Source: Camelus dromedarius (lineage: Eukaryota). From it: a stretch of DNA of 64,000 nucleotides. The position numbers and the translations under genes are program-made. Location: the NCBI RefSeq assembly GCF_036321535.1, contig NC_087436.1, positions 62,188,001 to 62,252,000 on the forward strand. Direction: 5' to 3'. The notes under the pieces are model-generated. The model did not search any database. It saw only the letters and a list, made by a program, of their open reading frames with translations, and had not been told where the DNA came from. This document shows, piece after piece, positions 2,148-7,864 of the stretch. The stretch's first letter is position 1, and every line of letters starts with the position of its first letter.

Positions 2148-5100
2148 AATTGACCAACCAATCTACAGGAATACTTTCATGTTATTGGAAACATACTGCA
2201 AATACCATATAATATATATTAATTTGTTTAAGGTAAAATATATTTTTTCTAGAAAACACTTATTACCAGAATTAAAAAAAAAAACTGAAAGAACAAACTC
2301 TCAAAATATATTTATTCCTAAAATTACATCTAAAACCACAAGTCAGATGGCAATGAGAATAAGAAAGCTTTCTGACTATTCATTAGTTCTCATGTGTTCA
2401 CAAATTCTGAAATAAGTATTTTTTTTTAAAGTATTTTAGCCATTCTGCCCTCATTTAGCTTATATAATTGTTGTATAGAACCATTCAGATTTTACCTGAA
2501 AGACATTTCCACTGGGGCATTAACATTACATAATAATTTAGACTAGCTTATAGAGAGCATTTCTGTAACTAATATATATCAGTAGCATAAATATGTTTTT
2601 CATATTATGAATAATGACTTATGTACATATGCTTTTTAGATGTCTTATAGTGAGATCAGAAATTTAAAAACCTTATCCTTAGAGATATTAGGTTGACTTG
2701 AAATTCTCTAAGAGACATTCTTCCATATGTCTTCTTTCTTCATCTGCGAAAATATGTCATATGGGCACTTAACTTCAGGATCAAGAATGCTTTATTTCAA
2801 TTTGTTAGTTTTAGAAGAAACACACCTAAAATAGTAAAAGAAAACTCTCTGCAAGACCCCAGGATTTTAAGGTTGTTAGTCTGTAAGTGAATTTAAAAGC
2901 ATCTTGTACCTACATTTTTATTTTCAGCTAAAGAGTAGTTTGGCAGGTAACAATCGGAAAACAATTCCCTAGATAATTTCATATGAAAATCATCTTACAC
3001 GGTTTGAAATATGATACAAAGTTGGAGCTTTAGTAAAGCTATTGGTGAGTTATATTATACTGATACTACCTGAAAACGTGATGAGAATGTTAGCAATCGA
3101 TGATGTTAACTTTGCACCTATGAAACAAAATTCCTCTGTAGACATTAACGTATTTTACAATGGCTCTCAAAAAGCTTTAGATTAGATTTAATCTAATCCT
3201 GAGGTTGCATCATGTTTATCAGGGTGTTTAGTAAATATGAAATAAGTAGGATGAATACTAATTATTGAATAATATTTCATATTCCATTTACAATAATACA
3301 GTCAACCAGTAAATGGGATAACTGTCTTCAAACATTTGTAAAATAAAAATATTTAAAATTAAACAGATTCCTGAATTCTTTCTTCTAGGTTATCAGCTGG
3401 GTTCTGAGTATCATAAAGGAAAATGGTTTTTCGAAGTTATTATATTTAATTTGCATATCAAATATTAATAGCAAGGAAAATAATTCTCTATAAGAAAGAT
3501 ATCTTCTATGTGTGTAATCAAATAGAAGGGCAAATTGATAATTTTATCATTAGATTACTTTTATGAAAATGTAAAATTATTATGATACATATGTTATATA
3601 TATATATTTTAAATTCACATATAAAGACTTGGAATATAGGCTTATGTGGAGAGCAGGATACAGATAAAATGATTTCTAACTTTACCTCAGATTTATGTTT
3701 AGTATAACATATTAAATATAATATGTAATTTATTATATATGCATATATACACACATACTAAAGTCAAATATAACTGTAAATGTTACTTTGAATTGGGGCT
3801 TGGGGCTTGTTAAGGTATCAAATCCCTCTTCAACTTCAGCTGGGGCAATGTTATATTATCAAATACAGTTTCAATAGTGTGTGCTTTCAACTATGACTAT
3901 TAACAGCATTGATTGTGAAAATCACTTATAATCAAAGTGCAAATATAAATAACATTATTACGAAGTGTAAGTATAAATACATAGTCTCAAAATTCTGCTC
4001 ATAGAAATTTATTTTAGGAACTCAAATTGTCAACAACATGGTTTCTACAAGAAAGCTCTAATGGAGCTCAGAGGGTAAAAAGAGATTTAAAAGAACTATG
4101 ATTTTGAGCAAAATTTAGAAAGGGGAGTGCTTTTTATTACTGGGCCCTAAACCAAGAGGCATCTTTTTAGTTCAAACTTTACCTTTTAAACTTATTCTCT
4201 AAAGAAATGAAGGGCAAAGAGAATTCTGATTTTCTTTTTACTGTGACCAAAACCTAACCAGGAGCTTTCAAGCTGTTTCCTTTTCTCCAGTGTTATTTAT
4301 TTGAATCCCTAGGATTTATTTTTCTGCATTGCAAGTACATTTGCCTTGATTCCTCACATTTCATCATTGTCAAGTTGATACATTTTTTCTTTGTAGTCAA
4401 AACCAAAAAAAAAAATCTTATAAATATTTGTCTATTCTAATGACTAATTTTTAACTCAATCAACTTCAAAAAATGCACAATTTTTTCAGGGATTAGTAGA
4501 AACTCTCTGCATTAGTAATATGGAACTTCAAACATAAACAGAGTATTTCATTCGGTTTCCCAATTCTCCATTACAGTCTTGCTGTGTACAAGGTACTGTA
4601 TGATATGCAAAGTGGTTTTAGTTCTAAAGAGCAGCCTTGAAGTCATTTATCCTGGAGGATATGTATATTAACATAAAACTGAAACATCTTATGTTGATAA
4701 CTATGAATTAACTCTTTATTGTGCTACATGGATTCTGACCTCCTTTCACTGACTGAAATCCTATTAATGCAATTGATAGCAATTTCAAGGCTTGAACTGA
4801 GACAGTGAAAGTGTTTGAAATATAGAGAAATCTCTTCAAAGAGACTTGAAAGAATGACATGGAATATTTATTTTACAGACAGTTTTCAAGATGGAGGAAA
4901 ATCATTTTCAAATTGATATAAATACGTATCTAAATTTATTGATAAGCACATGTTTTTAAAGTAAAACTGAATCTGGATAGGTTCAAAGGATCAAAGTTGC
5001 TCGCAGATTAGAATTCCTATGAGCAGGAACTAGCCTGCGCAAAAGTCTAGCTATGAGGATAGTAGTTCAATGTTTAAAGGACATGAGGGTACTTTTTTAC

Positions 5101-5269
5101 TCAATCGTTACTCTGGTTGGGATAAGCTAATACAAAGCACAGAAATATAGTCATTACATAAAAGTAGTTTGTTTTTGGTTGTTAAATCAGGCTTTTAGCA
5201 CTTATTGTACATTTACTGTCCCCAGGGTCTTTTTAGGTGGGAGTTAGGCGTTGGATTGGGTGATAACTT

Positions 5270-6520
5270 GTTCATTGCTTTACTGTTGGTCTTTTAACAC
5301 TTCAATAAATCTCCAAATTAAAAGATCATGCACTACCATAAGCTTTTGAAATTTGCTATGCCCACCATTCGCTACATCAATCATTCCGTGATCATGTTCA
5401 GTACTGATATATAAAGAATCCAAGTTTCTGGTGGAAATCTTGGAGTTACTGGTCTTGTTTTGTCTCTGCCATGCCTTCCACAGAGACACATTCTCTCAGC
5501 ATAATTTAGTAGGTCATCTAATTTTTCTGCACTCTCCACAATGTACTCAAGCTTCATTTACATCTTCCAAAGGCACAAATGGAAGTCTCAACGTGGGTGC
5601 ACACTTACAAGTGTTCCTTTCCATCGTCATATACTCGCAGGTTAGATCCAAAGAAGATATTTTTCACCATAGTGATAGTGAAAAGTTAAAAAAAAAAAGC
5701 ATCCTTTTACTTGTGCATTTGCATTTGGTAGGAGTGTTTAAGTCATGTTCACATATGCAATCTTGAAATCATCAGGCACAATGAAGGGTTACTGTCAAGA
5801 TTTCTTTCCCATGCAAATACAAGTACTTTCTCATCTATGTATCTATATATATATATATATGTCTTATTGCTTTTTCATTGTTAGTGCATAAATCAATGGT
5901 ATAGTATAACCCATACTATTCCGTGCACAGTAAATGAGTGAACTGCACTGGTGCCAGCTTGAAGGTGCCATTATTGAATAATGTGGTACTGACACTTAAA
6001 TATTGAATACTGCCATAGTTGGGTAACTTATCATTTTTGTCATCTTCAGCAATGGAATCTTGTATAAGAAGTGGTTCTACAAGTCTGGACACTGTATACT
6101 TCTCTGGAATTTCAATTCCATGCAATGATGTTGGATTTGGAAGTCGATATTTATTTTGAATCCTATTTACTTTGCCTCTTTAATGACTTTCTTTCTGATA
6201 GCATTAACAGGACCTCTTTATCATGAATATTATGGAGTGTTCTTGCAAGTACCTGTGATAGTGTTGCATTTGGACCTTCTTCTGTATGTATATTTTGGCC
6301 TACTCAGGATTTTCCTTACTTTCCCTTCAACACCAAATTGTGCTTATGTTTTCCTGTCTTACCTTGAATGATTTTGTAATGTTATCCAAATCCTGACTAG
6401 TTGTACATTGGGCACTGCAGATTCTCCTCTCATCACAGCACCAGTACCTTTCACATCTATCTCTGTTAAAGGAAAGGAAATGGTAACAAAAACCACTATA
6501 CTGTAGCACTGGCATTTTTG
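5270..6520 (-). mobile_element. Decayed Mutator-like (MULE/MuDR) DNA transposon transposase with N-terminal FLYWCH-like domain; multiple frameshifts and stops
   Basis: Minus-strand translation across frames gives ordered MULE motifs: LQYSGFCY..YWCCDERRICSAQCTT (6327-6515); LPNPTSLHGIEIPEKY..EPLLIQDS; NGTFKLAPVQF (5961-5972 = NGTF); PLIYAL (5882-5899); DDFKIA (5756-5773); VKGCFF (5693-5710); LPFVPLEDV (5559-5585); PRFPPETW (5420-5443); GGHSKFQKLMVVHDLLIWRFIEVLKDQQ (to 5280). Confidence 0.9.
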
Positions 6521-7864
6521 CCTGTGTGAGTATACTATTTATGCCACATTCTGCTGAGAATTTTCAAAAAAAAGATGTCTTTTTTTTTTTTTTTTTTTGT
6601 AGTTGACTGACCAATGGTCACTGTTTCACTGGTTGGGGAAAACTTATTAATGTCTTATGGATTAGACAGCTGGTTCAATATGGCTGGATCAAGCACTGGG
6701 CTGGTAGGCACCAGCCAATGGTGTGATGGTACAAACTGATTGGTAGGTAAGTGTGGGAGTCACACCCATTAAAACCTCTTCAAATAGTGGCAGACATTTC
6801 TTGCAATCTACCATAATTGTACCTCTGTAGGAAATCCATTCAGGGAAAACATCACCATTAACCATGGGTGATAGGATAGTTATAGAGGGGTTGATGCACA
6901 ATGTTCTCCTTGTGGGGACTCTGACACCCAGCCACTATGTGGTAGGAGAGCTACACCCATCTCACTCCTCCAGAACAAGCAAGATACTCTGTAAAGTGTT
7001 ATGTCAACATGTTTGCACTTGACCAAGCTACTCCTTTCAGACTCTGCCCTTATTGAACACAACCACATCCAACCATATGCCCAATGGGATATTAACACAC
7101 CATGCATCATGATATCCCATCCTCCACTTGTCCTCTGTGCATTTCTCTATCTGAAGGACTCTTCCTCCATATGTATATTAAATATAAATTCCACTCTTCT
7201 GCAAGATTCAAATCCTAATCCATCTACCTAACCCCAAATGCCATTACCAGCTAGGCTACCAAGGCTAGAAGGGTTATTATTGAATTTTAGGACAGGTTAA
7301 GCAGAGAGATGCAAAATGAATGTTTTTAATTAGTGCCATTTGCAACTGACCCTCAGTTGCATCAGCTGTGCTAAGTCAGGAAAGAAGTCATGACCTAGGG
7401 GAACAAACCACTGTATTTTTATAATTATTTTGGGTAGGAATTGCATTGTTTATGAATTTCAGAACAAATAGATTATTTATCTTATTAGCTATGCCTCATA
7501 AAGGAATGGAGAGCCTCCTGGATTCCCTATTGAGTTGCTTGGTGCCACCCAACACGAAGCAACTCTATCATTCTTAACGTCTATGAATTTTTCCTGTCTA
7601 TGCTTCTGCTTTGTCTCATATGACCTGTTGAAATTGAAAAGATAATTAAGGGCTTAGGTGTCAAATATCTCCTGAAAGTGGAAACTAAAAAACGAATCTC
7701 TGAATTATTTTTTTTTCGGATCTGCTTGACTTTCTACTGTCTGCAGAAAAAGATCATTTTTGCTTATGTAATGAAGTGTCATTTTCCTAGCATCTCTAAA
7801 AAGAAATAAGGATGAAGATGAGGAGCAAATTGGTCTTCAGGAAGTGTTAATTAGGGTACAGACT

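Follow-up and report, generated by a model that had tools for sequence, protein, structure and literature searches.

Whether Mutator-like elements (MULEs) are truly missing from vertebrates has been listed as an open question by Dupeyron et al. (PMC6446971), and the locus studied here puts that question in a concrete form: what is the decayed transposase gene lying on the minus strand of a 64-kb stretch of the Camelus dromedarius genome (the window, by which we mean that whole stretch at its full length), and how did it come to be in a mammal? An earlier note on this DNA had read positions 5270..6520 as a near full-length MULE transposase fossil with a FLYWCH-like finger, apparently of a family other than Ricksha. 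We have found that the window copy is a doubly truncated copy of a 2.5-2.8-kb FLYWCH-MULE DNA transposon of the Phantom type of Mutator elements, the clade being assigned by features. The mammalian family very probably originated by horizontal transfer, and the reading that we prefer, to which we give a probability of roughly 0.6, is that the element passed from the whipworm (Trichuris) lineage to a mammalian ancestor, amplified briefly and then decayed. This link to whipworms goes beyond the reading of the earlier note.

The element remnant in the window occupies 5257..7282 on the minus strand (2.0 kb; family positions ~281-2346 of ~2790). It is 81% identical to the majority sequence of the family over 2101 columns, and 67-77% identical at the DNA level to the other copies. 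Since the match to the family stops abruptly at 7282 and 5257, where other copies extend ~280 and ~450 bases further, the window copy comprises family positions 281-2346 without the ends; the inverted ends and the target duplication have both been lost, probably at a later time and through flanking deletions. The loss of the ends also accounts for the lack of real inverted repeats around the copy. The flanks are single-copy on both sides, no second piece of the element was found elsewhere in the 64-kb window, and the surroundings are AT-rich with no further long frame of note. L1-like sequences and a SINE derived from tRNA-Ala point to a placental mammal, probably a camelid. Neither junction shows a target duplication or a poly(A) tract, and an origin as a processed pseudogene was ruled out on these grounds. 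The extent given earlier needs correction, as the element continues upstream to 7282, and the copy, with codons 1-427 present, lacks its two inverted ends and the final 64 codons.

The transposase pseudogene (5257..6547, minus) corresponds to codons 1-427 of a 491-codon family transposase; it has GTG in place of a start codon at 6547, and carries 18 indels (14 of them frameshifting) and 5 in-frame stops. The raw sequence of positions 5253-6530 (62193253-62194530 of the contig) matches an intact MULE protein of Trichuris suis, P0014, with an E-value of 1.9e-48, well above chance, and the peptides from which a single collinear protein of about 400 codons had been pieced together do lie in minus-strand frames, at the places and in the order claimed, collinear with the family transposase. 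A FLYWCH zinc finger relic is located at 6340..6527 (minus), where the N-terminal frame matches the Pfam profile PF04500 with an E-value of 2.6e-4 and 21.5 bits, below the cut-off of 23.6 (one relevant match from seven frames). Of this DNA-binding domain, the codons for C37, C43, H66 and H68 are retained, but a frameshift splits them. The relic of the MULE catalytic core (5685..5972, minus) has N instead of the first D at 5972, a second D at 5770 that adjoins a 1-base deletion, and N instead of the CxxH His at 5687; in the segment holding W372 and the position of the catalytic E390 (5361..5422, minus), the W is found at 5422 and the E has become N at 5369. The suspected loss of the first D and of the E is thus confirmed, and that of the CxxH His is added to it. 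The remaining part of the element, 6548..7282 (minus), is its 5' non-coding part, common to the family copies. The window copy has no present function and is inert, and ranks among the poorer copies of the family. Microsatellite or homopolymer expansions are seen at 5836-5860, 5688-5699 and 6579-6597, and a TA tract within the transposase frame differs in length in nearly every copy.

The identity of the gene had been staked on a match to the MULE profile. This profile is silent on the window pieces alone (none of seven frames and neither of two further pieces), but the same stretch as the window's catalytic core passes PF10551 in a sister copy (L011/L031, 30.9 and 30.7 bits against a cut-off of 27.6), and the nearest intact relative scores 50.6 bits. 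The FLYWCH scores of the raw copies range from 17.5 to 22.8 bits, all below the cut-off, and a T. suis protein 71% identical to the family protein scores 45.5 bits, the C-C-H-H pattern being retained in the family. With a family frame that carries the motifs, a sister copy that passes PF10551 and a window copy that is decayed, the description of a dead FLYWCH-type MULE transposase was right.

A DNA search of the 2.3-Gb genome with window positions 5000-7250 returned 41 matches at ~30 places (30 of 30 candidates scored), the long ones at 68-77% identity. A search with a deleted copy, in which 40 of 146 candidates were scored, added one long locus, and one with the left end, in which 40 of 110 candidates were scored, brought in many short derivatives; the copy counts of this family are lower bounds. 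Full copies measure 2.5-2.8 kb, or up to 3.05 kb including insertions, and internally deleted derivatives 190-1500 bp. The majority sequence of 36 segments, in which 83 CpG sites were corrected, a TA tract was shortened and a stop was rendered as X, encodes a single frame of 491 codons, in which we recognise C37, C43, H66, H68, D192, D258, C279-H282, W372 and E390. These residues are retained in most copy segments: D192 in 12 of 15, D258 in 14 of 18, C279 in 18 of 22, H282 in 16 of 21 and E390 in 17 of 21.

In copies that keep their ends, the element terminates in inverted arrays of ~150 bp made up of 14-31-bp subrepeats, and its tips are unlike in the outer 8 bases, reading G[A/G]TTAGCAG on the left and, read inward, CCTTGCAGG on the right. 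Long and short copies alike (e.g. L105, L114, L121 and L124) have these unlike tips; the right tip is nearly palindromic, a property shared by the terminal motif of Muta1. Both ends could be analysed in 28 elements, i.e. 16 of the 20 short loci fetched together with 12 longer ones. A target duplication of 8 or 9 bp (at least two-thirds identity) flanks 17 of the 28, against 14 of 756 non-self pairings; ten are 8 bp and seven 9 bp long, and other lengths are at background. An earlier test on the 12 longer elements alone, in which 28 settings were tried, had given p ~0.005 for a length of 9 bp. The family thus presents PF10551, a DDE triad, CxxH after the second D where the superfamily has (C/D)xxH, a W before the E, duplications of 8-9 bp, within the 8-11 bp of the superfamily, and long inverted ends. 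Several copies (loci L017 [L063:489-587], L016, L028, L018, L007, L015 and L004) have received later insertions. These comprise two tRNA-Ala SINEs, an LTR-like sequence, 450 bp of unique-looking DNA that has a target duplication, and what we take to be a U6-like copy, the 3' end of an L1 and an element resembling Tigger2 which in turn contains an L1 end. Such insertions are of use for relative dating.

The Phantom group of MULEs, which includes Muta1 of Aedes and Tm1 of Meloidogyne, is treated in PMC3169594 and corresponds to group 20 of PMC6446971. Phantom elements, Muta1 (PMC5499845) and Tm1 share with the present family one transposase of ~490-500 amino acids with an N-terminal FLYWCH domain followed by a MULE domain, DDE, CxxH and W; the likeness further extends to long inverted ends of subterminal repeats, mixed 8-9-bp duplications and internally deleted derivatives (PMC5499845). 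Unlike the Phantom group, to which it is likened by features, the family here resides in a placental mammal, and all copies seen are dead; furthermore, the ends of Aedes Muta1 are near-symmetric (PMC5499845), in contrast to the unlike outer 8 bases here. On the model of Muta1 (PMC5499845), the FLYWCH finger and the enzyme would have bound to motifs at the ends and to the subterminal repeats. The transposase would then have excised the element and inserted it at a target cut with a stagger of 8-9 bases, and would also have mobilised the short derivatives in trans. The mechanism is that of an ordinary Phantom/Muta1 element, and as a system the family offers nothing new in kind.

Three explanations that dispense with a transfer have to be weighed at this point, namely that the family is the autonomous form of Ricksha, that it is an ancient vertebrate MULE passed on by vertical descent, or that it is a contamination artefact on either side; even taken together, we consider them very improbable. 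Ricksha is, like the present family, a Mutator-class fossil in placental genomes, and Repbase lists no other MuDR family for human (PMC5753468), which lends the first of them some weight, all the more as Ricksha enters the comparison by its published description. According to its published description, Ricksha has inverted repeats of 79 bp, one form with a captured ERVL/MLT2B piece (PMC1431705), as against the ~150-bp compound ends and the full transposase frame found here. The end motif that the earlier note ascribed to it agrees with the family termini at 5-7 of 19 bases, and a genome search with this motif gave one match, unrelated, against one control match, so that no copy of Ricksha was obtained for comparison. 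In addition, Dupeyron et al. detected no MULE transposase match in placental Repbase entries (PMC6446971), whereas a raw copy here passes PF10551. The view that this is not Ricksha is therefore supported indirectly, by published description.

As to the history of the family within the mammal, dN/dS is 1.24 over 29 segments (9,509 codons with 193 stops; 1.11 for transitions, 1.47 for transversions). Non-synonymous changes thus stand at 1.24 times the synonymous expectation, which argues that purifying selection was absent after insertion. Divergence from the majority sequence at non-CpG sites is 0.10-0.22, with a median of 0.136 (27 segments) and a value of 0.124 for the window copy. At an assumed neutral rate of 1.5-3 x 10^-9 per year, 0.136 substitutions per site would place a brief amplification at ~45-90 million years ago, followed by neutral decay. 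The ~30 long loci, their neutral decay and their star-like divergence agree with the separate, low-copy invasion that had been proposed for this locus.

The closest relatives of the family protein are found in whipworms. It is identical to T. suis P0014 (KFD61048.1) at 343 of 486 positions (71%; 84% similar, 8 gaps), and to other T. suis MULE proteins at 66-68%; a diverged pair from T. suis and T. trichiura gives 54% and 48%. The best full-length protein from outside Trichuris (P0003) reaches 48%, with the same ranking among 268 proteins, and a cockroach piece of 106 residues 52%. This link does not depend on the majority sequence, since the best match among the 268 proteins is P0014 for 24 of 25 raw loci (the 25th being without a match) and since the majority sequence without CpG correction is 69% and 63% identical to P0014 in its two halves. 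An alignment of 11 raw C-terminal pieces likewise retrieved Trichuris suis proteins first (8,000 candidates scored). The Trichuris proteins, T. suis KFD61048.1/M514_08442, KFD66287.1 and KHJ48013.1 and T. trichiura CDW58273.1, are collinear with the family protein over their full length and form a 100/100 clade with it; the main family, 66-71% identical to the mammalian one, has its catalytic residues intact. Unlike the mammalian copies they are intact frames, annotated as hypothetical and known here as proteins, and P0002 and P0022 differ in being 48-54% identical and in lacking the CxxH His. Among themselves, the Trichuris family members show 68-93% identity, with D-D-CxxH-W-E intact. Three word-index searches, in which parts of the candidates were scored, and a HMMER search of 1.84 billion representatives found no intact protein closer than those of Trichuris.

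The phylogenetic analysis points the same way. A tree was built from 48 of 131 rows, each with 300 or more aligned residues (the 34 best-scoring ones and 13 named ones of lower rank, two near-duplicates being dropped). In it, mammal and Trichuris group together with 100/100 support on a stem of 0.33, and the named outgroups are all invertebrates. With 17 rows, forcing the mammal out of the group of Trichuris and the nearest outsider was rejected (p-AU 0.0003). The path from the mammalian sequence to P0014 measures 0.37 changes per site and is shorter than the 0.44 that separates T. suis from T. trichiura in a pair of proteins which appear to be orthologues. The 71% identity, these path lengths and the rejected exclusion are the grounds on which we infer horizontal transfer. 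No named vertebrate protein appeared among the relatives found in the protein searches, which weighs somewhat against vertical descent. An enzyme far closer to whipworm genes than to anything else found makes a jump between parasite and host likely. The parasite as the donor is in turn favoured by the diversified intact family in Trichuris, the diverged two-species pair and the invertebrate outgroups, as well as by the single neutral burst which is all that the mammal shows; a Trichuris-lineage element would thus have entered an ancestral mammal by horizontal transfer rather than descent.

The branching order itself is less favourable to this reading. The best 17-row tree places the mammal sister to six Trichuris rows (87/79, not starred), at 0.13 from the shared node, and a placement of the mammal inside the Trichuris rows was neither recovered nor rejected (p-AU 0.23). 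Moreover, sampling is uneven and only part of the candidates were scored, so that a closer donor may exist. The same branching could reflect a third carrier, such as an arthropod, another parasite or a virus, which gave the same element to the mammal and to the whipworm separately; it would sit well with a closest outside relative of only 48% (P0003) and with the report of Phantom elements in insect viruses (PMC6446971). We nonetheless regard this as rather unlikely, as nothing nearer than Trichuris emerged from the word-index and HMMER searches and as the viral contigs contained no relative by protein or by end pattern; metagenome contigs yielded two distant loci (28-34%). The reverse route, in which an invertebrate element entered the mammal and the whipworm acquired it from its host and radiated it, draws on the mammalian sequence branching ahead of all Trichuris rows at so short a distance from the shared node, and rapid evolution in nematodes over 60-90 million years could conceivably account for the divergence within Trichuris. 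However, it needs two transfers, the one short neutral burst in the mammal would leave a brief window for donation, and the branching order on which it leans is weakly supported (87/79), and we judge it less probable still. Transfer from the whipworm lineage to the mammal remains the reading that we prefer.

Contamination was considered on both sides. The window stretch is present in 20 of 24 sequencing runs from two organisms, at 0.98-0.99 of its words (14 of the runs are possibly the source), and in 4 of 4 runs contigs continue across the 3' junction into unique flank. The reads leave the 5' junction and positions 6592-7155 uncovered, gaps from which nothing follows; on this evidence the mammalian copy is not contamination. 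The T. suis genes, for their part, have intact frames, lie on contigs of 112-2,787 kb and recur in more than one assembly; in this they are unlike the decayed host copies, which speaks against host contamination. Further copies probably exist, in decayed form, in the genomes of other mammals: public assemblies contributed 51 short proteins, of which 31 share 65% identity or more with the family protein across 40 or more residues, and 30 of these 31 are nearer to it than to P0014; only one is nearly identical (96%) to a locus here. When the short fragments were compared with single loci, they gave mostly a paralogue background, with a top share of 0.13-0.28 in the controls; those standing out are P0313 with L003 (8/13), P0302 with L002 (7/12), P0296 with L007 (7/18) and P0272 with L014 (6/18), but these fragments are short and provide no date.

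As the family shows every MULE hallmark in a mammal, it settles the question of vertebrate MULEs in one lineage at the least. Dupeyron et al. (PMC6446971) mention a MULE of the horse, published in 2010 with no more than a FLYWCH alignment, and this horse Phantom element may be the family described here; the family may also already be in Dfam or Repbase. Transfers into mammals are rare, mammals and birds together accounting for 24 of 975 transfer events (PMC7070016). The few known cases between nematodes and vertebrates comprise RTE1_Sar (shrew and strongylids), AviRTE (birds and filariae) and bandit (hookworm and human) (PMC6542046). Like the present case, they involve a transposon common to a parasitic nematode and a vertebrate host group, with horizontal transfer as the best explanation, but they concern RTE retrotransposons or another DNA transposon and other nematodes, whereas here an old MULE and whipworms are involved. 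If true, the whipworm link would extend these cases to a further class of transposon and a further group of nematodes, and would provide a minimum age for a host-parasite association. No report of a whipworm-mammal MULE transfer was found in the open-access literature searched: the relevant terms are absent from PMC10162687, MULE terms from PMC7070016, and three supplements of PMC6446971 mention neither Trichuris, Equus nor Ricksha, and PMC13359780 and PMC10027918 add nothing on mammalian MULE transposons. Joined into one account, these lines would say that at about the end of the Cretaceous an early placental received a Mutator transposon from a whipworm. This would have left a bona fide vertebrate MULE whose transposase is complete and readable, as well as a dated record of trichurids already parasitising placentals, and the genome would have undergone two or more MULE invasions, independent of each other and of Ricksha, of which this is one; we put this whole forward tentatively, at somewhat less than even odds.

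Several observations stand beside this argument. Within the 5' region of the element, a tRNA-like A-box/B-box pair is located at 7205..7258 (minus). It is weak, common to the family, and was found in 1 of 2000 Markov resamples for a pattern picked post hoc; it could be a donor-derived SINE/tRNA relic or an internal Pol III promoter. ARAGORN called no tRNA in the window (with relaxed thresholds, it called 4-10 spurious tRNA genes in the family sequence), and Rfam over six loci returned no tRNA and no match at gathering score, with three matches at chance level. The PDB contains no solved relative. In the whipworms, the pair formed by P0002/P0012 (T. suis) and P0022 (T. trichiura) is 69% identical and lacks the CxxH His in both species; P0002 retains D, D and E, and P0022 has lost the E as well. 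The common loss of the His and a long shared branch point to orthology, and the pair is a candidate for a domesticated whipworm gene.

The genome also harbours another MULE family (L068, L069, L070, L085-L104, L125 and L126), which is unrelated to the first and outnumbers it, mostly in the form of deleted copies of 800-1200 bp with inverted ends of ~100 bp. The genome search with the Ricksha end motif given in the earlier note found no match in it; its transposase relics are 25-40% identical to the protein of the FLYWCH-MULE family, with no DNA similarity. Finally, five intact, clustered FLYWCH domains are found at L033-L037 (C24:9.27 Mb), which presumably represent the host gene FLYWCH1.
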